Shown piece after piece: positions 9,733-23,606 of a stretch of 64,000 bases of DNA. The notes under the pieces are model-generated. The model saw nothing but the letters and a program-made list of their open reading frames with translations, ran no database searches and was not told the origin of the DNA. The position numbers and the translations under genes are program-made. The stretch lies in IMG/VR virus record IMGVR_UViG_3300025383_000009. One strand, written 5' to 3'. Origin of the DNA: a virus (Duplodnaviria; Caudoviricetes). The first letter of the stretch is position 1. Each line of letters begins with the position of its first letter.

Positions 9733-10089
9733 ATGGACTCTTGGGGTTATCACTTAATTTTGGATGTAAGAGGTTGTGATATTGAAAAAGCAACTAATCC
9801 AGATTATATTCGTGATTTTACTAAAGAATTAGTTAAACGAATAGATATGAAACCTTATGGAGAACCCCAAGTGGTTCATTTTGCTGATAATACTGATTTA
9901 GCAGGTTGGACAGTATTACAACTAATTCATACCTCTAATATTACTGCTCATTTCTGTGATATTAATGGTGACTTGTATTTAGATGTGTTTTCATGTAAGG
10001 AATTCGATGGAGATGTCGTGGTTCAGTTCCTAAACGATTCTTTTAAACCATTGAGAATAACCTCTAGATATCTTTACAGAACAGCGTAG
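9733..10089 (+). CDS. speD: Pyruvoyl-dependent SpeD/AdoMetDC-family decarboxylase proenzyme
   Basis: GYHLILD, QLIHT-SNITAHF, LYLDVFSCKEF. Confidence 0.8.
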   Translation: MDSWGYHLILDVRGCDIEKATNPDYIRDFTKELVKRIDMKPYGEPQVVHFADNTDLAGWTVLQLIHTSNITAHFCDINGDLYLDVFSCKEFDGDVVVQFLNDSFKPLRITSRYLYRTA

Positions 10090-11243: not shown

Positions 11244-11272
11244 TTTACTTTTCGTTACATTCCTTATATAAT
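11244..11272 (+). promoter_or_regulatory. sigma70-type promoter of pqqA
   Basis: TTTACT-N17-TATAAT. Confidence 0.75.
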
Positions 11273-11277
11273 AATGG

Positions 11278-11299
11278 TGTTAGAGTAGAAATTCTAACA
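11278..11299 (+). promoter_or_regulatory. 5' leader hairpin (or palindromic operator) of the pqqA transcript
   Basis: TGTTAGA-N8-TCTAACA inverted repeat at the predicted +1. Confidence 0.55.
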
Positions 11300-11321
11300 T
11301 AACCTTTAAAGGAGATATACC

Positions 11322-11393
11322 ATGTGGACATCACCAGCTGCAACTGAAATGCGTTTTGGCTTCGAAGTTACTATGTATGTAATGAACAAGTAA
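11322..11393 (+). CDS. pqqA: PQQ precursor peptide PqqA (MWTSPAATEMRFGFEVTMYVMNK), not in ORF track
   Basis: 23 aa with the RxGFEVTMY core (E-x-x-x-Y); strong SD AAAGGAG; dedicated promoter and terminator. Confidence 0.93.
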   Translation: MWTSPAATEMRFGFEVTMYVMNK

Positions 11394-11415
11394 TTAACGA
11401 TTCAGTTTACTAAAT

Positions 11416-11446
11416 AAAACGAGAGCCTAAAAACTCTCGTTTTTTT
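11416..11446 (+). terminator. Rho-independent terminator after pqqA
   Basis: AAAACGAGAG-CCTAAAAA-CTCTCGTTTT plus T-run. Confidence 0.85.
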
Positions 11447-11764: not shown

Positions 11765-13768
11765 TTATTTTGAGGTGGCACGATAAGTGCCGTCCCAATT
11801 TGCAGGTAATCCTTCTTCCATTCTTTCTATCATTTTAGAATAGTATTCTTTTATGGTAACATCATCATTGTTTAACATTTTTCTAGCCCAATCAATTGCT
11901 TTATCCCAATTACCACGATAATATTCTTTTAGATATTCATTGTGCATGTAAGCAATAGTTTTGCCTACTGTATAAATTTTGACACCTTCTGTTTTACCTT
12001 TAACTGCTATGTTGTCTAATTCAACAACGCTATAATTATCTTTAACTAATTCAGCAGTTAATGGACCAAGAATAATCTTAACGCCATAGGGTTTAGATTG
12101 TCCTTCAAGTCTACTTGATAGGTTGACTGCATCTCCGAGGCAAGTGTAATCAAAACGATAGCGGCTACCCATATTACCAACAACAACACTACCAGTATTG
12201 AGCCCAATCCCCATTCCGAACGGCGGTATGCCTTCTTTTTCAATTTCTTTATTAAATTCATCTAAATCTCCTAACATTTCTAAAGCTGTTTTTACGGCAT
12301 TGATGGCATGGTCTTTATCATCAAGAGGTGCATTCCAAAAAGCCATCTGAGCATCACCAATATACTTATCTAGCGTTCCATTATTATCTAAAATCTTTTG
12401 TGTCATAGCAGTCATATATCGGTTCATGATAGAAGTTAAACCTTGAACGTCTTTACCATAGTGTTCTGATATTGTGGTGAATCCACGAACATCAGTAAAC
12501 ATAATAGTTAAATCTTTTGTTTCACCACCGAGTTTTAATAATTCTGGATTCTTTTGTAATTTTTCAACAAGTGCTGGTGATAGGTACGTTCCAAATTGTT
12601 TTTTGATTTGTAATTTTTGATTTAACTCACTTATAAATTTAACAGTATACGCATGAGCATAAACAAGACAAAGAGTAAGAATAGGAAAGATACAGTCCAC
12701 CAAATAATTGTAATGATTAAAGGTATAATGAGAACCATAATATAAAGAAACAATAATAGTAACAATAAAGATAATAGCATATTTCCACCTCGATAATAAA
12801 ATTAATAATATAGACATCATAATTGTGAATAAAAGTTCGGCACCAGTAGCCCAATCAGGTCGTTCTATATTGACATTATTAGCTAAGGTGCCGATTACAG
12901 CAGCCTGCACATCTTGAGGCCATACTGAACCTATACTTGTAGGTAAAGGATTGCCTAATCCTGAAGCAGTTACTCCAACAATAACTATTCCTTTGTTAAA
13001 GTTTTTTGGTAGATTTACTGCTGAAACAGAATTTGATTTTTGTGACCAATCAACCCATATACGACCAAGTGAGTCTGTTGCAATTGGTCTAAAACTTGGT
13101 ATTCGCATCTTCTCAACTCCGTTCTCATTAAGTTTGACTTGAAATGTTGAGTCACCAGACATAACCCTTAACACTTCTAAAGATACACTTGGGTAAATAT
13201 TACCATTATATCCAACGAACAAAGGTATTCTACGATTAACACCGTCTATTTCAGGTAATGTGTTTGTTATTCCAACTCCAGCAGCCGAAGATTCTAATGA
13301 CGGAATGTTAGCAATAATACCTGGATAATTTAAAATAGTATTGATGTTTTCTGAACCAATAATAACAGAACCAGGTTTCTTTGCTGTATTTTTATTTGAT
13401 TGTGAAGGAGAGTTTACTAAAATTACAGGATGGTCTTTGATTGTATCTTCTAATGCTTTGTCACCACCTAATCGGTCGGCTTCAGGCATCATTATATTCC
13501 ATACAACTAAACCGGCATTATGAGCATACAACTGAGCAATTAAATTGGCATATTGGTCACGTTTAAATGGCCATTGACCATAACGGTCTAAAGTGTTTTC
13601 ATCAATATTAACCGTATAGATATTATTAACGGTTTGAGTTTTGCCTGAAATGAGAGTGTCAAAATATCGTAATCGGATTGATTCGATAAAGTTAGAATTG
13701 GAAACAGCAATCACTAACGCTAAGGTTAGTAATGCTGTCCATGGTGATAATAGATATTTCTTAAACAA
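11765..13768 (-). CDS. CHASE2-domain class III adenylate cyclase (membrane-bound)
   Basis: CHASE2 (LRYFD, IDENTLDRYGQWPF, D-DG-RR), 3 TM helices, cyclase motifs FTDVRGFT, DKYIGD, GNMGS-RFDYT-LGDAVNLSSRLE; probable TTG start at 13768. Confidence 0.93.
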   Translation of the reverse strand: MFKKYLLSPWTALLTLALVIAVSNSNFIESIRLRYFDTLISGKTQTVNNIYTVNIDENTLDRYGQWPFKRDQYANLIAQLYAHNAGLVVWNIMMPEADRLGGDKALEDTIKDHPVILVNSPSQSNKNTAKKPGSVIIGSENINTILNYPGIIANIPSLESSAAGVGITNTLPEIDGVNRRIPLFVGYNGNIYPSVSLEVLRVMSGDSTFQVKLNENGVEKMRIPSFRPIATDSLGRIWVDWSQKSNSVSAVNLPKNFNKGIVIVGVTASGLGNPLPTSIGSVWPQDVQAAVIGTLANNVNIERPDWATGAELLFTIMMSILLILLSRWKYAIIFIVTIIVSLYYGSHYTFNHYNYLVDCIFPILTLCLVYAHAYTVKFISELNQKLQIKKQFGTYLSPALVEKLQKNPELLKLGGETKDLTIMFTDVRGFTTISEHYGKDVQGLTSIMNRYMTAMTQKILDNNGTLDKYIGDAQMAFWNAPLDDKDHAINAVKTALEMLGDLDEFNKEIEKEGIPPFGMGIGLNTGSVVVGNMGSRYRFDYTCLGDAVNLSSRLEGQSKPYGVKIILGPLTAELVKDNYSVVELDNIAVKGKTEGVKIYTVGKTIAYMHNEYLKEYYRGNWDKAIDWARKMLNNDDVTIKEYYSKMIERMEEGLPANWDGTYRATSK

Positions 13769-13997
13769 GTGATAATAAAGTTTGTGTTGCTGTAACCAAC
13801 CATCTATAGGCAGTTTCATCATCTGCTAAAGCTTGTTGATTTTTTACATCTACGATTTCTTTAACAAGAAATGAATACTCTTCGTCAGATAAATCACCTG
13901 CTTGATGTTGCTCGGTAATTTTTACCAACTCAGCAGATAATTTACCAAGAACACCTGGATGTCCTGATTTTTCTCTTAATTCTTCTAATATTTTCAT
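13761..13997 (-). CDS. 78-aa helical protein, paralog of 41021-41257
   Basis: ATGA-coupled to the upstream lipoprotein; 36/78 ungapped identity to its paralog by manual count. Confidence 0.75.
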   Translation of the reverse strand: MKILEELREKSGHPGVLGKLSAELVKITEQHQAGDLSDEEYSFLVKEIVDVKNQQALADDETAYRWLVTATQTLLSLV

Positions 13998-14350
13998 CTT
14001 TGTCTCCATGATTCTGAAATAACTTCTACTCTAGATTGTGCAATTGTTAATGCTGATTGGCAAAATAACATACTCTTTGAATCTTTTGCTTTTGTCAGTT
14101 CTTCTTTTAACTTATCAAAGCTTGGTGATTGTGGGTCATTTCTAAGCGCTGAATAAACTTTGATATGTTGTATTTTTGAAGAGAGGTCTGGCCAAGTTGA
14201 TTTATTGGCACAATCTAAATTGTCTACTACGATTTTAATATCTACCAATTGGTCAAACATAACAGGGTCATGTTTAAGTGGCATTATTGATGTAATAGTT
14301 GAACAAGCGGTTAATGTAAGTAATGCAATAAGTGATATAATTTTTTTCAT
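13994..14350 (-). CDS. Lipoprotein, paralog of 41254-41610
   Basis: Lipobox LTAC; conserved Cys pair, RxDPQ. Confidence 0.75.
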   Translation of the reverse strand: MKKIISLIALLTLTACSTITSIMPLKHDPVMFDQLVDIKIVVDNLDCANKSTWPDLSSKIQHIKVYSALRNDPQSPSFDKLKEELTKAKDSKSMLFCQSALTIAQSRVEVISESWRQR

Positions 14351-14357
14351 GATTTAT

Positions 14358-15422
14358 TTAGTTGCTCTGTTGTTTAATAGTTATACTATTGGTTGTTTGG
14401 TCTTGATTTTTCAAATTTACTGTAACACCATTTTGTATGATATTTATATTATATCCTTTGTCTTTATCTATTAATACTGTAGCACTATCTTTAACCGTTC
14501 TTTGTATCATCCAATAAGTATTTTTATCAAAAATATACACTTGATTTAAAGAGTTATAACCTACCACAAAAGTTGCTAATATCATATTATCAAGAGCATT
14601 TGTTAAATAATTTGTGTCTAACGGATTTACATCTAATTCATTAAACCCAGCATAAGGGTCTTTAAAAACTTTTGCATCTAAAGCGTTTTGTTCTAATCCC
14701 GTAAATTCTAAAGCAGAACCTGATTTATTGATTATTTCAGCTTGTATTCTTTCAATGATTTGTTTTGGTGGTTTAACAATAAGCATATTATCAATAGATG
14801 ATTCAGATAATGCTAACAAAACAGGTTTTAATGGTTTAATTTCGGATGATTTTGTTACTGTAGCTTGAAACGCTTGGTTTAAAACTACTTTACCCATGGC
14901 TGTGCTAACTTCAATTGAACCAACTGAACCATCTGGATTTGGTAACAGAATAATAAGAGATTGTCCTATCTCATCTACAGTCATTGTGAATGCTGTACCA
15001 CGAACAGCAACTGAAGCGGTCGGAGTATTGATTGCTACATTTTTATTATTTTCGTGTGCGATATTACCAGATGCATAACGAACAGTTCCCATTGTTACAT
15101 TGAGAGCTAATTTACCTGCACCTTTTTTATTGGGGTCATAGACAAATTCGTCTATAAGAAGTTTTGAATGTTCTGTGACTTTTACTTGAGTTTTATCTTC
15201 AAATGTAATGCCTACTATTCCATTGCCTGTTTGAACAATATCATTACTATCTATATTTGATTTAGGTTTAGCCTCTATTACATCTTTATTTCTAGTAATA
15301 GAGGCTGGACCTTTTTGTTCAGTTATAGAACCAATTACCGCCCAACTAGTGTTGGATGACAGACACAGAAGCACCGCTACCAGTAAGGTTAACGATTGCA
15401 CTATTTGGGTTGGTCGTACCAT
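14358..15422 (-). CDS. FecR-domain periplasmic protein
   Basis: Signal peptide; DIVQTG, ITFEDKTQVKVTEHS, GTVRYASG, TPTASVAVRGTAF. Confidence 0.85.
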   Translation of the reverse strand: MVRPTQIVQSLTLLVAVLLCLSSNTSWAVIGSITEQKGPASITRNKDVIEAKPKSNIDSNDIVQTGNGIVGITFEDKTQVKVTEHSKLLIDEFVYDPNKKGAGKLALNVTMGTVRYASGNIAHENNKNVAINTPTASVAVRGTAFTMTVDEIGQSLIILLPNPDGSVGSIEVSTAMGKVVLNQAFQATVTKSSEIKPLKPVLLALSESSIDNMLIVKPPKQIIERIQAEIINKSGSALEFTGLEQNALDAKVFKDPYAGFNELDVNPLDTNYLTNALDNMILATFVVGYNSLNQVYIFDKNTYWMIQRTVKDSATVLIDKDKGYNINIIQNGVTVNLKNQDQTTNSITIKQQSN

Positions 15423-16053
15423 CTTGAGTCACACTTATATTATTTGAATTACCAATGTTGTTAATACTAATACTATGGCCTGCACCAGCACCAGTACCAT
15501 TTGCACCTGTTTGGCTTGTGGTGATACTGTTATTGTTACCTGCAATTGCTATAGTATCTGTAACATTTTTACTGTTTATGGTACTTGTTATCGAATTACT
15601 ATTTCCTACAGTAGTGATGCTATAGTTATAATTACTCGAATCTCTCATTGTTCCTATATTCAATACAGAATTATTGTTACTACCTGAAAACGATAAATTT
15701 AAATTACCGTTATCAGTACCAAAGTTTCCGTAATTCAATACGATACCGTTACTATTACCATCTTGAGATATTACTCCTGTAGAACCACCACCAACAAAAT
15801 TACCTGTGATAGAGTTGTTCATACCGTTTTGTGTGATACCTAAATTAATACTGTTACCATCAATCACAAATGATGGACTACCAACATTAGTAGGATCTCC
15901 TACCGTGTTGTTAGAACCTGTTTGTGTTATGGTGACTGTAGAATTATCAGCGTTAGTTTGGTCAATATAAACACTATTACCTCCACTATCGACTGCCAAA
16001 GCACTAAATGCTAATAACAAACCCATCACAAAAGTGATAAGCTTACTTTTCAT
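15346..16053 (-). CDS. Secreted curlin-like Asn/Gly/Ser-rich repeat protein
   Basis: Signal peptide; repeats QTGSNNTV, QNGMNNSI, QDGNSNGI, IAGNNNSI, NIGNSNNI; SD AAGGAG. Confidence 0.65.
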   Translation of the reverse strand: MKSKLITFVMGLLLAFSALAVDSGGNSVYIDQTNADNSTVTITQTGSNNTVGDPTNVGSPSFVIDGNSINLGITQNGMNNSITGNFVGGGSTGVISQDGNSNGIVLNYGNFGTDNGNLNLSFSGSNNNSVLNIGTMRDSSNYNYSITTVGNSNSITSTINSKNVTDTIAIAGNNNSITTSQTGANGTGAGAGHSISINNIGNSNNISVTQDGTTNPNSAIVNLTGSGASVSVIQH

Positions 16054-16825
16054 TCTTTTTCTCCTTAAATTGCCACATACCTTTTTTTTCACCTTGAATA
16101 ATCAATTGCTCTACCGCCAGGTCTGTAGCTGCTTTTATGGCGTGTATAGAAGCCTCTGTTTGAGATATTCCTATCTCTTGTTCAAAATTTTGTGTTCCAT
16201 TATCAAAAAACTTAAATATAGCTACACCTGCTGTATAACTCAATATGGTTTTTTGAGCGTTTACTGTTAATAGCACTTCACCTGTTTGTGTGCTAATTGC
16301 TCTTATGCTTACAGTTACAACATCTTCTTGATATTGTGTGTCTGGTCCAATTCCTAACCAACGAACACCAATACCACCTGTTCTTATGTTTGTATCGTAA
16401 CTTATAATACCTCCTTCAATAATCATACCTGCATATAACATAGGTCTGATACCAGAAGGATCTTTTGCTTCATCTCTTGCTGAACGAATTAATTGTCTTT
16501 CTTTTAATAAATTATCAATACCAACTCGTTCTACTATTCTAAACCATTTTCCGTCACCAGCATCTTCTAATGACTTTAACAATACTGTTTCACCACCTTG
16601 TGTTACAGCGGATGATAACTTAGCAATCGTAGCAGAATCTTTTCTTTGACCAGTTTTATCAGCAAAGCTATAAACAGCTACAACTACTTTACCATTAACA
16701 GGTTCAGGTAACGGAGTCTTAGCCCATTTCATTGGCATAAGCTCTGGTTCTTTTTTAATAACATTCATTGGCGGTGTGCAACCAATTACTGCTATACACA
16801 TAAGTGCTATTAATATTTTTTTCAT
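16043..16825 (-). CDS. csgG: Curli secretion channel CsgG-like lipoprotein
   Basis: Lipobox VIGC; VAVYSFADKTGQRK, SSAVTQGG, WFRIVER-LLKERQLIRS, EGGIISYD. Confidence 0.88.
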   Translation of the reverse strand: MKKILIALMCIAVIGCTPPMNVIKKEPELMPMKWAKTPLPEPVNGKVVVAVYSFADKTGQRKDSATIAKLSSAVTQGGETVLLKSLEDAGDGKWFRIVERVGIDNLLKERQLIRSARDEAKDPSGIRPMLYAGMIIEGGIISYDTNIRTGGIGVRWLGIGPDTQYQEDVVTVSIRAISTQTGEVLLTVNAQKTILSYTAGVAIFKFFDNGTQNFEQEIGISQTEASIHAIKAATDLAVEQLIIQGEKKGMWQFKEKKNEK

Positions 16826-16826
16826 A

Positions 16827-17264
16827 TTAGAAACTTAATGTTCCAATAGGAATACTAACTTGCGTCACATTACCATTTTGATCATTAACAGTCATGTTAA
16901 TCATGTCAGCTGTTTTGGTGTATGTAATAGTATTACCTTCAATGGTAACAGTTCCACTATTTTGTGGATTCTCACCAAACAGATTATTAATTAATTGTGT
17001 AGATAATTGAGCATAGACTCTGCTCTCAAAGTTAGTCAAGAACTTGGCTAATATAGTATTATTAGCGGCATTTGCTGCATCAATGGCTGCCTGTTTCTGT
17101 GCCGCTTCTATTGCTTGCTTGCGTGTGTATTCTGTGTTCTCGATAGTCTGTACATGAGAACTATATCCTATCCCAGAGAAGGAAGGAGATTTAAACTGAA
17201 ATACTTGTTCCGCATAAGCGTTACTGCTTATCAGTACTACTGCTAGGATCCTGGCGAGCTTCAT
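16827..17264 (-). CDS. csgF: Curli assembly protein CsgF-like
   Basis: Signal peptide; FKSPSFSG, FESRVYAQLSTQL, SGTVTIEGNTI; adjacent to csgG. Confidence 0.7.
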   Translation of the reverse strand: MKLARILAVVLISSNAYAEQVFQFKSPSFSGIGYSSHVQTIENTEYTRKQAIEAAQKQAAIDAANAANNTILAKFLTNFESRVYAQLSTQLINNLFGENPQNSGTVTIEGNTITYTKTADMINMTVNDQNGNVTQVSIPIGTLSF

Positions 17265-17502
17265 TCTTCTCTTTCTCTCTTAAAGACAGAATAACGTTCA
17301 CCTTTTGATTGAGCCTAATAAGATCGTTGTCTAACATACGAATACGATCTATCAGTTCAATCAATACCTTATTTGAATCACCTAAAACTGGTTTAATTTC
17401 TTCTGTTACCCACTTCCATACATAAAAGATTAGATAACCTAATCCTCCAGCAGCAATAATGGGAAACCCATATTTGTTAATTAAAAATGCTATATCACCC
17501 AT
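17221..17502 (-). CDS. Small single-TM + coiled-coil protein (GFPI motif, holin-like)
   Basis: KYGFPIIAAGGLGYLIFY; paralogous to the next gene. Confidence 0.6.
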   Translation of the reverse strand: MGDIAFLINKYGFPIIAAGGLGYLIFYVWKWVTEEIKPVLGDSNKVLIELIDRIRMLDNDLIRLNQKVNVILSLREKEKNEARQDPSSSTDKQ

Positions 17503-17503
17503 G

Positions 17504-17779
17504 TTAATCCCTTCGGGCGTCAGATTGTTCTGCTCTTGCTATTCTATCCAAATCAGGTGGGATACCTAAGGCATGACTTACTTTGGTATCTATACGAATG
17601 ACGTCATGATTCATAGCTGCGACTCTTTTGTCAAGGGCTATGATAATACCACTCATGCCTTTAACTCCAGATGTTACACCAGCTAAGATAAATTTGAGGG
17701 TTAAGAAAACGAAATATCCTCCAGCAAGAGCTGAGGCTATGGGAAATCCTACCTCTCCGACTAACTTAAGAAAATCCAT
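17504..17779 (-). CDS. Small single-TM + coiled-coil protein (GFPI motif, holin-like)
   Basis: EVGFPIASALAGGYFVF, NHDVIRIDTK. Confidence 0.6.
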   Translation of the reverse strand: MDFLKLVGEVGFPIASALAGGYFVFLTLKFILAGVTSGVKGMSGIIIALDKRVAAMNHDVIRIDTKVSHALGIPPDLDRIARAEQSDARRD

Positions 17780-17784
17780 ATAGC

Positions 17785-17792
17785 TATTTATA
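17785..17792 (-). promoter_or_regulatory. T4 late promoter heading the curli/FecR/cyclase operon
   Basis: TATAAATA 5 nt upstream of ATG 17779. Confidence 0.75.
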
Positions 17793-17796
17793 TAGA

Positions 17797-18885
17797 TTAT
17801 GTCTTAGTTTGGAGTTCGTCTATCTCTTGTTCTATAGTCTTATCAGGGTGTTCTGGGATATGATCTGCAGGCATCTTGGTTGGGTGCCAAGCTTCCTCAG
17901 TTGCTGGACTGATATACTCGTCAGGGTTAATACTATCCTCATAGTGCAAACCATGGTTGCCGTTCTGAGCTACAGTATCTATACGACTCTCATCCCAGTC
18001 TGCTTCTTCTGGGAGGGGTGTAGGATCTGGTTCAAGCCACTTACGTTTACGAGGCTTTTTCTTTTTAGGAGGATCAATAGGGTAATTGAGCCAAGGTTCT
18101 AGGTCCTCAGGTTCTACTTTAGGTTGACTTTTTTTTAGCGACCAGTTGACTGCTACTAACATTAGCACGGCAAGTGGATCGAACACTAACACGATCATGA
18201 TGATGACCCAACGGACAGCCTTTTCAAGCATGGTTTGGTCTAGAGTATCACCATAGATGAGTGCTGCGATGTACTTGATAGGACCAACCTCAGCCTCGAT
18301 CTTACGGGCTTGAGATGCCACGGGCGCACGTTCACCTTGTAGCTTAACTATAGCTGCCTGAGCTGATGAGATATCGTTCTGTAGTCTCTTACGTTCTGCA
18401 CCCTGTGATCGTCTAATCTGTACAGCTTTGTCTGCTCCTTGTTCGTCTGTAGATCTACTTAACTTCTGATCCACCTGAGCATCCATCTGAGCTAATGCTT
18501 TACGAGCTGCCTCGATGTTATCACGCTGTGTCTTGATCTTTTCATCAAAGATCTGTACTTGTGCTGATACGTCTCCAGCTGGGACAGCTTGGTCAAGGTG
18601 AGCTTTTGATAAGAAACCAAAAATACCCATAGATGTAATCATCATGAGGATAATTACTGCTGTAGTAAAGTAGATCCTAAATGTATTAGGAACATCTTGC
18701 CAGTTTCTGTATAACCATGAGGCTACGACTAACTTAGATACTTCAAGTATCCCACCCATGATGATGATTGGAACTACGGCTGCAGCAAATATAGCTGTTA
18801 AGCCTGCAATAGAGTAGAACGCAGCGATACAACTCAGCGATATTGCTGATACAAACATTATGCTCGTCATTACTTTATCGTTCAT
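17797..18885 (-). CDS. Membrane-anchored coiled-coil protein with acidic Pro-rich tail
   Basis: N-terminal TM helices, AEVGPIKYIA, VFDPLAVL; tail motif AQNGNHGLHY. Confidence 0.7.
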   Translation of the reverse strand: MNDKVMTSIMFVSAISLSCIAAFYSIAGLTAIFAAAVVPIIIMGGILEVSKLVVASWLYRNWQDVPNTFRIYFTTAVIILMMITSMGIFGFLSKAHLDQAVPAGDVSAQVQIFDEKIKTQRDNIEAARKALAQMDAQVDQKLSRSTDEQGADKAVQIRRSQGAERKRLQNDISSAQAAIVKLQGERAPVASQARKIEAEVGPIKYIAALIYGDTLDQTMLEKAVRWVIIMIVLVFDPLAVLMLVAVNWSLKKSQPKVEPEDLEPWLNYPIDPPKKKKPRKRKWLEPDPTPLPEEADWDESRIDTVAQNGNHGLHYEDSINPDEYISPATEEAWHPTKMPADHIPEHPDKTIEQEIDELQTKT

Positions 18886-19172
18886 TTTTTCTTTGTTCTA
18901 GCTCTTGTCTCTACAATAAGAGCATCTTGTATACGGATCTTATCGTCCTGTGCCTTAATTTGTTTCTTTAAATCTTCTATACGTTCGATCAATATTAGAT
19001 CTTCTGAGTTTAGGTTATTCCATCTACTCGTTGCTTCATCTATACGTTTATTTTGATAGACGATCTGCTCATGATAATCCACCATCTGGATATAACACAT
19101 GAATGATGTATATAAACATGCAGCGCATAATAACGTTAACATGAATCCAATTACTCTCAACTTAATTCTCAT
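18882..19172 (-). CDS. Hypothetical TM + coiled-coil protein
   Basis: ORF tiling; N-terminal hydrophobic helix. Confidence 0.6.
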   Translation of the reverse strand: MRIKLRVIGFMLTLLCAACLYTSFMCYIQMVDYHEQIVYQNKRIDEATSRWNNLNSEDLILIERIEDLKKQIKAQDDKIRIQDALIVETRARTKKK

Positions 19173-19593
19173 ACTTTATATGACTCCTATGTACACGACA
19201 GTTCACGATCCCATTATACCACTTATCTGGGTTTTCTAATACTTCATTTTGCATTTGTAATTTTGCTTCAAAATAACTTGCGGTACCTTTGGATAAGCAA
19301 AACATTAGGATTTCCCGTTTGAACTTATCTTCTCCTAATGCCTTGACATCATCTATTACTTCTTTTGATGAGGACCAATATGTCCTCCAATCTGATTCTA
19401 TCTTGCTGCGGATTTTCTTTTTCTTTTTGTTACCGTTTTTAAGCGTAACTGTTCTTGTAGCAGTCTTAGAAAATTTAGTGAGTTTCTTACCAATATACTT
19501 TTTATTGGTAATGCAGTTAGTAATGATATATACAAACCCAACATATTTATCGTCAATAGTCTCAACGGGCACATTGTTGTACATCCATGTCAT
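19162..19593 (-). CDS. GIY-YIG endonuclease (short)
   Basis: GFVYIITNCITNKKYIGKK, YWSSS, YNGIV. Confidence 0.8.
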   Translation of the reverse strand: MTWMYNNVPVETIDDKYVGFVYIITNCITNKKYIGKKLTKFSKTATRTVTLKNGNKKKKKIRSKIESDWRTYWSSSKEVIDDVKALGEDKFKREILMFCLSKGTASYFEAKLQMQNEVLENPDKWYNGIVNCRVHRSHIKYEN

Positions 19594-19733: not shown

Positions 19734-20713
19734 TATTGGGCTCCTCCCCATACATCTTCCCATGAACCTTTAAGTGCACCCTTCGCATAGTCGGTTACAC
19801 GGTTCTCAAAGAAGTTACCATGAACTGGAGCATTGATCATCTCCTCAACCCATGGTAGCGGGTTCTTTTTAACTTTAAAAATACCTTTTAATCCGAGTGA
19901 GATCAAACGCCTATCAGCGATGTAACGGATGTATTGTTTAACATCTACTGGCTCTAACTCTCTCATGTGTGTACCTGAGAATGATAAATCAATAAACTTA
20001 TCTTCGAGTTGAACCATCTTCTCAGCTATAGTATATATGCGACCCTTCAAGTCATCATTCCATATCTCGTTGTTCTCTTTGATAAATGTTTTAAATAGCT
20101 TAATCATGTTCTCAGCGTGCATAGTTTCATCAACGATTGACCATGTAACGATCTGACCCATACCTTTCATCAAACCATGACGAGGAAAATTAAGCAGCAT
20201 GATAAAAGAACTAAAAAGCTGCATACCCTCCGTGAAAGCAGAGAATACTGCGATGTGCGTTGCAGTTGAAGATAAGTCACCGTTTTTCGAACTGAGTTCC
20301 GTAACATAGTCGTGTTTGTCCTTCATTTCTTGGTATTCAAGGAATTCATTATATGTAGATTCTGGCATACCTAACGTCTCAATCAAGTGAGAGTATGCTG
20401 CGATATGTAATGCTTCGCGAGCCGCAAAGCCCATAAGCATCATTCGAACTTCTGGTTGAGGGAAGTATGGTAGGTAGTTCTTAACATAACCGCCGGCAAC
20501 GTCGATGTCACCTTGCGTAAAGAACCTAAATATATTAGTAAGGAACTGCTTCTCTTCCTTTGTTAACTTCTTCTTCCAGTCCTTAACATCTTCTGCCATA
20601 GGAACTTCTGTATGTAACCAATGTGCCTGTTCATGTTTCAACCATGCGTCATATGCCCATGGATAATTGAATGGCTTAAAGTATTCTCTCGTATCGGTTA
20701 ATTTGTCTGCCAT
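19733..20713 (-). CDS. nrdB: Ribonucleotide reductase class I beta subunit
   Basis: Diiron ligands in REALH and DETMH, EGMQLFSSF, NFFENRVTDY. Confidence 0.96.
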   Translation of the reverse strand: MADKLTDTREYFKPFNYPWAYDAWLKHEQAHWLHTEVPMAEDVKDWKKKLTKEEKQFLTNIFRFFTQGDIDVAGGYVKNYLPYFPQPEVRMMLMGFAAREALHIAAYSHLIETLGMPESTYNEFLEYQEMKDKHDYVTELSSKNGDLSSTATHIAVFSAFTEGMQLFSSFIMLLNFPRHGLMKGMGQIVTWSIVDETMHAENMIKLFKTFIKENNEIWNDDLKGRIYTIAEKMVQLEDKFIDLSFSGTHMRELEPVDVKQYIRYIADRRLISLGLKGIFKVKKNPLPWVEEMINAPVHGNFFENRVTDYAKGALKGSWEDVWGGAQ

Positions 20714-21255
20714 TAGATGTTCAACTCTTTCTTTAGTTCGTTAAATAAATTCATACAATGATCAAATCCTGCTATTGCTTCGTCTAATAGATCTATACTT
20801 AACTTAGAGTCTATGTATGCAATGCATGCAGGTCTATCTTCAAATGCATAAGCATGACTGGGTCCTGGTACTAACTTACCTATCATCTTACCACCGTATA
20901 AATCACCCATATGTCTTACATATACATGAGCCATGATCTGGTCTGGTCGACTATCAGCTAAAGATAATAGATGAAACATGTAATTCTTTGTACTTATATA
21001 AGGTGCCACGATAGTTCCACCTAACTCTGCAATATCAAGTGATATCTTATGAGTACGTCTAAGGTCTTCCATACCTTCAAACAGCCCATGAACTGTAGCG
21101 CATGCTTCTAGTGTAGAGTATATATGCCACATCTGTTGAAGGTATGTAAGATAGTGTTCCTTAGTTATCTTACCAGTGAACATATACTGGACAAAATCAG
21201 ATCCTTCGACCTCTTTGTGTTTTGCTCGAGTATGTTCTGTAAGTATCGTTGCCAT
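20713..21255 (-). CDS. Heme oxygenase
   Basis: TRAKHKEVE (proximal His), AHVYVRHMGDLYGG. Confidence 0.88.
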   Translation of the reverse strand: MATILTEHTRAKHKEVEGSDFVQYMFTGKITKEHYLTYLQQMWHIYSTLEACATVHGLFEGMEDLRRTHKISLDIAELGGTIVAPYISTKNYMFHLLSLADSRPDQIMAHVYVRHMGDLYGGKMIGKLVPGPSHAYAFEDRPACIAYIDSKLSIDLLDEAIAGFDHCMNLFNELKKELNI

Positions 21256-22166: not shown

Positions 22167-23606
22167 TTATGTCCAGACCCTATAGTTTTCGTAAGCACAT
22201 GGATTTTTTGGATCCAACTCTCTGTAGAATAAACTGTTGACATCTTTGAATGGTGTCCATTTTGTCTCGACGAATGGGACTTTACCTAGATATGGGTCAG
22301 CATACTTCAATACGAAGTCATATGGTATTGCTTCTGGCTCCACATAACCTTCATTAGGATTCTCTATTGCCCATATCATTGCACCTAACATTGATGCAAC
22401 AACCTGTAATGATGTAGCGTTCTCTCCTGGTATTAGTCTCCTTGCTTCCTCGATAGTTAACTGTGAACCGTGCCACATACCAAAGTCATCCCCCAATAAT
22501 AGCACACCTAATTCATCCATACCACCCACGATCTCATCCTTAGCGATGCGTAGTTTAGTATGTAGATCTAACTCTTTACCTCTCATCTCATGTACTGAAG
22601 CGATAGCTGCATCACATGGTTGATAGACGTAGTATACTGATGGCCTAAACGATTTATCTTTAGTTTCAAAGTATTCTGATATCGTTACAGCTTCTGAGTG
22701 TTGGATATGGAAGCCATTGTATTGACCACCTAATGGAACCCATGATCTTAGTAACACTGATACACCGGGTTGGAATAGGTATGCAGTGTTACCTTGTGCT
22801 TTACCATTCTCTGGGTTAGTATCTTCGTGTGTACCCCAACCCATCTCAGCGGGAGCTCTACCTTCTGCCCAAAAACCTTCACATGACCATGTATTTACAA
22901 ACTCATTCTTTTCTTTTGGTTCACCAAGGACTTGTGTGTCACGTTCTGCAACATGTACTACCTTAACACCAACCTTCTTCATCAACTGTGCCCAACCTTC
23001 TTTATCGGTTGGTACTACATACTTGATGCCTTTCTTTTCTGCTAACTTGAGTAACGCTCTCTTAGTAAGGTGTGTCACCAAACCAGGGTTTGCACCATGA
23101 GTTCCAACAACCGTTGCTGCACCTTTGTACTTCTCTGCCATAGCACGAACTTCTTTATGAGTATGGTATAGTGTACGTTCTGCTAGTTTAGGGATAGTCT
23201 CGTCTGGTTCATCTTCCCATCTTTCAAGAGATGTATTGATGTAATGAACACCATGTTTTAAACACCATTCAAGGATCTCAAGTGCACCGATGTTTAGTGA
23301 TACATCGATAACAAACCCACCTTCATCTACATACTTTGATAGTGTAGATTCTAAGTTATTCCTTAAGATCTCTTTCTTAATGTATGTGACTGCAGACTTA
23401 CCATTACGTTCTTTAAAAGTTTTTTCGTTCTCACCCTTCTCAAGCACTATAATGTTAGATGCTTCAGATGTGATGTGTCTAAGGATTATTGGTAAGATCG
23501 CTTGACCTACAGATCCATAACCTAAGATCAAGATCTTCCTACCATCAAACTTTACATACTTCTTATTTTTATAGTCTATGAACTTACTAAAATTTTCTAT
23601 TGCCAT
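22167..23606 (-). CDS. hss: Homospermidine synthase
   Basis: Rossmann LGYGSVG, HGANPGLV, HVAERDTQ, NTWSCEGF, NATSLQV. Confidence 0.92.
   Translation of the reverse strand: MAIENFSKFIDYKNKKYVKFDGRKILILGYGSVGQAILPIILRHITSEASNIIVLEKGENEKTFKERNGKSAVTYIKKEILRNNLESTLSKYVDEGGFVIDVSLNIGALEILEWCLKHGVHYINTSLERWEDEPDETIPKLAERTLYHTHKEVRAMAEKYKGAATVVGTHGANPGLVTHLTKRALLKLAEKKGIKYVVPTDKEGWAQLMKKVGVKVVHVAERDTQVLGEPKEKNEFVNTWSCEGFWAEGRAPAEMGWGTHEDTNPENGKAQGNTAYLFQPGVSVLLRSWVPLGGQYNGFHIQHSEAVTISEYFETKDKSFRPSVYYVYQPCDAAIASVHEMRGKELDLHTKLRIAKDEIVGGMDELGVLLLGDDFGMWHGSQLTIEEARRLIPGENATSLQVVASMLGAMIWAIENPNEGYVEPEAIPYDFVLKYADPYLGKVPFVETKWTPFKDVNSLFYRELDPKNPCAYENYRVWT

Follow-up and report, generated by a model that had tools for sequence, protein, structure and literature searches.

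A gene cluster that joins a curli-type (type VIII) secretion system to a FecR-domain protein and an adenylate cyclase has been described in podo- and myophages, in the order one or two "histidine kinases," CsgF, CsgG, CsgA/B, FecR, and adenylate cyclase, often with a second CsgA/B between FecR and the adenylate cyclase (Wittmers et al. 2022; PMC9599517). That study reported that the gene order is conserved, that the module is expressed in metatranscriptomes, and that it originated in Alphaproteobacteria. The module accounted for ∼0.1% of the assembled viral proteins in ocean viromes, and the authors concluded that the set is under selection as a whole. Two other studies, Zaragoza-Solas et al. 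2020 (PMC7029224) and Buchholz et al. 2022 (PMC9004378), discussed csgF and csgG and mentioned neither the cyclase nor FecR; a freshwater myophage group without curli genes was also reported (PMC7029224). CHASE2 domains and promoters are not mentioned in the published papers on the module. The subject of the present study is a cluster of nine genes in a 64,000-nucleotide stretch of viral DNA (IMG/VR record IMGVR_UViG_3300025383_000009; the whole stretch is referred to below as the window). This cluster is a freshwater member of the published module.

A freshwater copy of the phage curli, FecR, and adenylate cyclase module

Nine open reading frames (ORFs) on the minus strand occupy positions 11765 to 17779 of the window. 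A preliminary description had reported nine contiguous or overlapping genes following the element TATAAATA, and all nine ORFs were found where it had placed them, with junctions ranging from a gap of 7 nucleotides (nt) to an overlap of 77 nt. Five of the products, identified by the Pfam (PF) matches given here, have a Pfam identity:

17785-17792, minus strand: late promoter element TATAAATA, T4-type, 5 nt upstream of the first ATG
17504-17779, minus strand: g1, a small membrane protein of 91 amino acids (aa) with a coiled-coil tail, paralog of g2 (phrog_18771)
17221-17502, minus strand: g2, 93 aa, a paralog of g1 whose N-terminal hydrophobic segment is of the GFPI type (phrog_18771)
16827-17264, minus strand: CsgF homolog (PF10614, 9e-18) with a signal peptide and, at its N terminus, the motif FQFKSPSF
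16043-16825, minus strand: CsgG outer-membrane lipoprotein pore (PF03783, 1e-48; lipobox VIGC)
15346-16053, minus strand: secreted curlin-repeat protein (CsgA/B-like), 235 aa from M14 (PF07012, 2.5e-6)
14358-15422, minus strand: periplasmic FecR-domain protein (PF04773, 5.7e-8, residues 63-155; phrog_37870)
13994-14350, minus strand: 118-aa lipoprotein with an LTAC lipobox (no Pfam or PHROG family)
13761-14009, minus strand: 82-aa helical protein lacking a signal peptide (no family in Pfam or PHROG)
11765-13822, minus strand: receptor adenylate cyclase, 685 aa (CHASE2 PF05226, 2.8e-36; Guanylate_cyc PF00211, 1.3e-20)

The gene order and the T4-like backbone are those of the pelagiphage module (PMC9599517), as found in HTVC008M (KC465899), Melnitz (PMC9004378), and pelagimyophage metagenome-assembled genomes (MAGs; PMC7029224). 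Pelagibacter phage HTVC008M is the sole deposited phage with nucleotide similarity to the cluster (67% over csgG/curlin), and its module proteins are 29 to 46% identical to those of the window. However, the window copy comes from freshwater metagenomes, and its variable slot, which separates FecR from the cyclase, is occupied by the lipoprotein and the helical protein rather than by a second curlin or a PA14 protein. All 24 of the 24 public runs that contain the stretch are freshwater DNA metagenomes. The cluster is flanked by T4-like replication genes, and the window is thus part of a T4-like myophage, in keeping with the tailed phages of the pelagimyophage or HTVC023P type that bear the published module; plus-strand genes at 4 to 9 kb encode a sliding clamp, a clamp loader, RegA, a deoxynucleoside monophosphate kinase, and endonuclease V. 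The preliminary description noted that csgF and csgG had been reported in phages without a demonstrated function, but it missed that the coupling of csg genes to FecR and a cyclase had already been published in 2022 (PMC9599517), and this coupling is therefore not new. The present analysis adds the identification of the CHASE2 domain together with its bacterial FecR pairing, a reannotation of g1 and g2, the inserts in the variable slot, and the freshwater copy itself.

Our preferred reading, to which we assign a probability of about 0.6, is that the cluster is a module of a freshwater T4-like myophage that would be transcribed from one late promoter and would include a sensor half converting an envelope cue into cyclic AMP (cAMP). 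In the first half, preceded by the possibly holin-like or YvrJ-like g1 and g2, an outer-membrane CsgG/CsgF channel would export the curlin-repeat protein. In the second half, the periplasmic FecR-domain protein and the CHASE2 receptor cyclase would respond to a cue from the periplasm or the envelope by making cAMP in the infected cell. FecR would modulate CHASE2, the cAMP would be made late in infection, and the cue would presumably concern the curli half.

A late promoter ahead of the first gene

Counted over the whole window, TATAAATA is not enriched (9 occurrences versus 7.9 expected). Among 57 distinct related sequences, the element was present no more than 60 nt upstream of g1 in 30, with a background of 0.3% per 60-nt window, and NATAAATA was present in the same interval in 42 (background, 0.7% per 60-nt window). 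Upstream of g2, csgF, csgG, the curlin gene, fecR, and the cyclase gene, each represented by ∼40 to 60 distinct upstream sequences, TATAAATA was never found. A further copy in the cluster, at 14441-14448, lies in the coding sequence of fecR, in Asn/Ile codons, at a distance of 91 nt from the next start. No minus-strand terminator-like site was found in a scan from 17792 to 11765, and a scan for sigma-70 promoters and terminators within the cluster gave nothing exceeding chance. Because the motif is kept before g1, is missing before the later genes, and is followed by no internal terminator, the cluster appears to form one late unit beginning at g1, an arrangement that fits the tight packing of the genes. 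The single late operon proposed in the preliminary description, a late-type promoter followed by a tightly packed unit, is thus supported as a prediction.

Fourteen distinct sequences, which differ in the letters of the spacer and have g1 identities from 36% to 100%, place the motif exactly 5 nt ahead of the ATG. Other lineages have 20 to 49 nt between the motif and the g1 start, with a Shine-Dalgarno-like GGAG/GGGG. The late promoter motif of T4 occupies positions -13 to -6. With the motif so placed, a 5-nt spacer would put the start of the transcript at the A of the g1 ATG, so that, if transcription begins as in T4, the 5-nt class would give a leaderless mRNA.

One further minus-strand gene lies immediately ahead of the element:

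17797-18885, minus strand: protein of 362 aa; four hydrophobic segments, long coiled coil; weak match to DUF4407

This gene stops just ahead of the late promoter, and it is found upstream of g1 in many of the closer relatives and not in distant ones.

Co-conservation of the module and a variable slot

A scan of IMG/VR with CsgG returned 80 loci, with CsgG identities down to 47%, and linkage to the cyclase was counted in the 46 loci that continue for 7 kb or more downstream of csgG. The order of the genes is shared among the related loci (g1, g2, CsgF, CsgG, the curlin-like protein, FecR, cyclase), and g1 is present in nearly all of them. The cyclase was linked to csgG in 46/46 loci, on the same strand in 42 and inverted in 4. 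The co-conservation of curli genes, FecR, and CHASE2 anticipated in the preliminary description was therefore observed, and no locus in this set had a cyclase unlinked from csgG.

The conserved core comprises seven of the nine genes that had been grouped together. The lipoprotein gene and the 82-aa helical gene, which fill the slot between FecR and the cyclase in the window, recur in only 1 of the 80 related loci (L004) and, to judge from the loci compared, are lineage-specific inserts of a hypervariable slot outside that core. In 14 loci the stop of FecR overlaps the start of the cyclase by 4 nt. Among the slot genes of other relatives are those for a second curlin-repeat family, whose HTVC008M member has a PA14 domain, and for URO-D, a metallophosphoesterase, RimK, a glycosyltransferase, DUF4337, and a weak GTA-holin-like protein (GTA, gene transfer agent). 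Two relatives, L002 and L003, have a slot arrangement with DUF4337, HAD, and RimK genes; as far as the FecR stop, both share 96% identity with the window.

The relatives, compared at the nucleotide level, show modules exchanged at the borders of genes. From the start of g2 to the end of the cyclase, L004 and the window are 90% identical, but L004 has a different g1. Several observations of this kind weigh against the reading favored above. L002 is 96% identical to the window at the nucleotide level down to the FecR stop (14358), where unrelated genes begin, and its cyclase has only 65% protein identity with that of the window, which indicates that FecR alleles are not tied to one CHASE2 allele. 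In the loci without the 4-nt overlap, 0.36 to 3.5 kb of variable genes separate FecR from the cyclase, and in the four inverted loci the cyclase lies on the opposite strand.

These features are also those expected if the two halves were linked without a joint function. In that case the curli half would make an open pore, or fibers that serve aggregation or shield against superinfection, the FecR/cyclase half would use cAMP to rewire host metabolism, and the two would act independently, being acquired and exchanged as a single cassette. The FecR-cyclase junction behaves as a hot spot of recombination and insertion, with URO-D, RimK, phosphoesterase, and glycosyltransferase genes; the cyclase is inverted in some loci; and the closest bacterial FecR/CHASE2 pairs, described below, have no csg genes nearby. 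However, no relative of sufficient length has lost the adjacency of the two halves, even at 47% CsgG identity and despite heavy gene turnover, and they are linked across myo- and podophages (PMC9599517). Selection thus seems to act on the set, and we consider independent action of the two halves unlikely.

Three contigs filed under Luteolibacter, Sphingobacteriales, and unclassified MAGs (L082, L083, and L084) carry the full phage module. Two of them, of 103 and 142 kb, look like phage genomes that were binned with bacteria. A FecR profile scan of genome contigs, which used a single narrow peptide pattern, returned three MAG-binned phage contigs and three distant Desulfobacterota FecR proteins; no cyclase was found near the latter three, a result that is uninformative.

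The CHASE2 adenylate cyclase

The cyclase consists of a transmembrane segment, a periplasmic CHASE2 domain (residues ∼34 to 339), three transmembrane segments, and a class III catalytic domain (residues 435 to 618). The closest solved relatives are Cya2-derived cyclases and Pseudomonas aeruginosa CyaB. Alignment to solved cyclases indicated that the metal-binding residues D444 and D490, the adenine-selecting K486, and the transition-state residues N567 and R571 are all present. The second specificity position is occupied by T560, giving a Lys-Thr pair as in P. aeruginosa CyaB (3r5g). Across 44 relatives from phages and bacteria, D444, K486, D490, and R571 do not vary. The 685-aa protein is accordingly predicted from its residues to be an active adenylate cyclase.

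No gene with a cyclic nucleotide-binding domain (PF00027) was found in five related phage records, one of which is complete. Because the related phages encode no such domain, the cAMP would act on host receptors, or else on a receptor of an unrecognized type. A predicted complex between CHASE2 (residues 46 to 323) and mature FecR (residues 29 to 354) received a score of 0.00, which counts neither for nor against an interaction.

The small membrane proteins, the FecR-domain protein, and iron regulation

The translations of g1 and g2 have an N-terminal hydrophobic segment followed by a charged coiled-coil tail. Searches of Pfam and PHROG found no kinase domain in either protein. The proteins called "histidine kinases" in the published module (PMC9599517) are not kinases of this kind, because they are only 91 to 93 aa long and lack a kinase domain; their sequences are those of small membrane proteins, possibly holin-like or YvrJ-like. 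The nearest Atlas clusters of g2 were a viral "Holin family protein" (0.97) and, among Pfam-named families, YvrJ (0.88), matches that serve as leads only.

The FecR-domain protein has a cleavable signal peptide, and its only hydrophobic stretch lies within residues 4 to 31. Apart from PF04773, no Pfam domain was found in the protein, nor were a membrane anchor or an anti-sigma domain. The AlphaFold2 model shows moderate confidence for the N-terminal beta-sandwich and a predicted local distance difference test (pLDDT) value below 50 for residues 185 to 354. The top Foldseek matches of the sandwich were PupR (6ovk) and BDI_1681, and an Atlas search with the C-terminal half (residues 185 to 354) gave no usable match. 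The protein has 2351 homologs in metagenomes. Its C terminus has a conserved N-x-I-x-I-x-Q motif, in which I349 and Q351 are present in at least 90% of the sequences. A curlin repeat was considered for this region and rejected, since Pfam Curlin_rpt matched none of six C termini even at E ≤ 10.

The periplasmic beta-sandwich (PF04773; PupR signaling domain, 6ovk) is shared with the FecR and PupR proteins of FecIRA-type signaling. Unlike those anti-sigma factors, the phage protein lacks both the N-terminal anti-sigma domain and the anchor, and neither an extracytoplasmic function (ECF) sigma factor nor a TonB-dependent transducer is encoded among the nine genes and their immediate neighbors. 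The phage protein is not a FecR-type anti-sigma factor, and reading it as an iron regulator is poorly founded because the cytoplasmic domain, the anchor, the sigma factor, and the transducer are all missing.

This bears on the explanation offered with the published module, which takes FecR for a regulator of the iron or ferric-citrate type and has the cyclase and the "histidine kinases" regulate the secretion system much as CRP-cAMP and CsgD do in Enterobacteria (PMC9599517). The FecR Pfam domain on which that proposal draws is present. However, in addition to the missing parts of a Fec-type system and the small size of the supposed kinases, the proposed regulators lie under the same late promoter as the genes that they would regulate, and there is no CsgD among the cluster proteins. 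This explanation is therefore very improbable for the cluster studied here.

Bacterial FecR-domain and CHASE2 pairs

A different context for the FecR-domain protein was provided by bacterial genomes, in which 12 loci were checked for a FecR-CHASE2 neighborhood. Next to the closest plasmid and chromid homologs of the cyclase in Ensifer, Paracoccus, and Ruegeria there is a gene annotated "FecR domain-containing protein." In seven Rhizobium chromid records the coordinates place the best FecR match within ∼1 kb of the best cyclase match, and on one MAG contig FecR and TPR genes stand beside a CHASE2 cyclase. In another relative (L094), FecR is fused to giant proteins with RTX-type repeats that adjoin a type I secretion system and a CHASE2 cyclase. 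No csg genes were found near the bacterial FecR/CHASE2 pairs that were checked. The phage cyclase is 25 to 34% identical to the alphaproteobacterial cyclases over 80 to 93% of its length.

Related arrangements have been described. An operon of a LysM-FecR protein and a CHASE2 kinase ("BiofilmReg") is found in Burkholderia, with a counterpart in P. aeruginosa PAO1 (PMC5192318). In Sinorhizobium meliloti, the FecR-domain protein SMc02177 is among the cAMP-regulated (Clr) targets downstream of CHASE2 cyclases such as CyaD1, and the FecR-domain gene is dispensable for the perception of the plant signal (PMC5498481). The S. meliloti CHASE2 cyclases perceive their signal via the outer-membrane protein NsrA (PMC13001267).

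As in the phages, the bacterial pairs consist of a secreted FecR-domain protein encoded beside a sensor in which a transmembrane segment, CHASE2, and three further transmembrane segments follow one another. They differ from the phage pair in that the bacterial FecR partners have other extra domains or neighbors (LysM, TPR neighbors, and RTX repeats) and are not near csg genes. In the window two small genes part FecR from the cyclase, whereas the two overlap in the 14 phage loci noted above. A FecR-domain protein with CHASE2 is an existing bacterial gene pair and not an iron regulator. By analogy with these neighborhoods and with the published cases (PMC5192318, PMC5498481), the preliminary suggestion that FecR and CHASE2 may form a signaling pair gains support.

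CHASE2 cyclases also recur beside envelope export machinery in bacterial and metagenomic relatives (L089, L094, L097, and L098). In Ensifer an NHLP-type bacteriocin ABC exporter stands beside the CHASE2 cyclase, with a cyclic nucleotide-binding protein nearby, and in L097 and L098 genes for a TolC-like OEP and an AprE-like adaptor overlap the start of the cyclase.

The curli export genes and the timing of lysis

The export half resembles the CsgBAC/CsgDEFG system of Escherichia coli in its CsgG lipoprotein pore, its CsgF cap, and its Sec-dependent curlin-repeat substrate. The alignment of CsgG with its E. coli counterpart spans the whole protein (E value, 6.5e-45). The constriction residues Y51, N55, and F56 of E. 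coli CsgG are replaced by S, K, and L in the phage protein, and the lining of the channel thus differs from that of the E. coli model system. CsgF has a cleavable signal peptide, as read from its translation, and had no match at E ≤ 1 among PDB sequences. Its N-terminal F-x-F-x-x-P-x-F motif can be set beside what we take to be the corresponding motif of E. coli CsgF.

The curlin protein scored 27.8 bits against PF07012 (cutoff, 20.7) over three stretches. It is 60% N/S/G/T and has repeated N-x-x-T/V-I-x-Q-x-G motifs. Its gene most likely starts at M14 (16053) and not at the GTG at 16092; read from M14, the translation begins with a cleavable signal peptide. Searches of Pfam and PHROG found no match to CsgE, CsgC(H), or CsgD among the nine cluster proteins, and the alphaproteobacterial and phage modules likewise lack CsgE, CsgC(H), and CsgD (PMC9599517). 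The phage set thus differs from E. coli curli in the absence of CsgE, CsgC, and CsgD, in its degenerate curlin repeats and changed constriction residues, and in its phage late promoter; any extracellular amyloid fibers are putative.

The preliminary description went further and proposed a circuit in which the CsgG/CsgF pore or a curlin fiber signals through FecR and CHASE2 to cAMP, which sets the time of lysis in response to superinfection or cell density. The parts are predicted to be in the right compartments and are inherited together under one late promoter, and g1 and g2 have holin-like Atlas neighbors. The weak GTA-holin-like gene in the FecR-cyclase slot belongs to one relative, and the sensing of CHASE2 cyclases through NsrA offers a precedent for an outer-membrane input (PMC13001267). 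Pairwise protein distances, in which curlin, FecR, and CHASE2 co-vary most strongly (Spearman, 0.85 to 0.91) and the catalytic domain least, point in the same direction, but these correlations are confounded by shared phylogeny and carry little weight. Further points argue against this circuit. The curlin-repeat hidden Markov model misses the FecR C termini, the genes adjoining the cluster in the window include no identified lysis enzyme, no cAMP effector is known in the phage (PF00027 being absent from the five related records), and clumping was not seen in Melnitz cultures (PMC9004378). We consider this circuit quite improbable.

Another version, in which FecR and the CHASE2 cyclase would monitor the phage's own curli-type export or pore, and an envelope event, for example attack by a second phage or contact with neighboring cells, would elicit a cAMP pulse that, together with g1 and g2, sets the time of lysis, is a long shot.

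Other genes near the cluster

Upstream of the cluster, the minus strand carries genes for NrdA/NrdB, a primase, a SegE-like endonuclease, heme oxygenase, and other proteins. The accessory genes near the cluster are as follows:

9733-10089, plus strand: S-adenosylmethionine decarboxylase, speH type
19162-19593, minus strand: SegE-type GIY-YIG homing endonuclease
20713-21255, minus strand: heme oxygenase
22167-23606, minus strand: saccharopine-dehydrogenase-like protein

The speH-type S-adenosylmethionine decarboxylase has been counted as typical of freshwater SAR11 myophages (PMC7029224).

Positions 11244 to 11446 of the plus strand hold a tiny stand-alone unit with a promoter-like element, a short ORF, and a hairpin terminator:

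11244-11272, plus strand: promoter-like TTTACT-17-TATAAT
11322-11393, plus strand: 23-codon ORF
11416-11443, plus strand: hairpin terminator

The product of the 23-codon ORF has a pattern that we take to be PqqA-like, MW..PA....R.G.EVT.Y..N, including the Glu-x-x-x-Tyr pair.

Implications

The module is among the most widespread accessory cassettes of the phages of abundant aquatic bacteria. With a CHASE2 receptor, a periplasmic FecR partner, and small membrane proteins in place of kinases, the relevant questions become the cAMP output in response to envelope cues and the timing of lysis, rather than iron regulation. If the export-monitoring version were true, the phages that carry the module would have a cyclic-nucleotide analogue of the lysis inhibition of T4.

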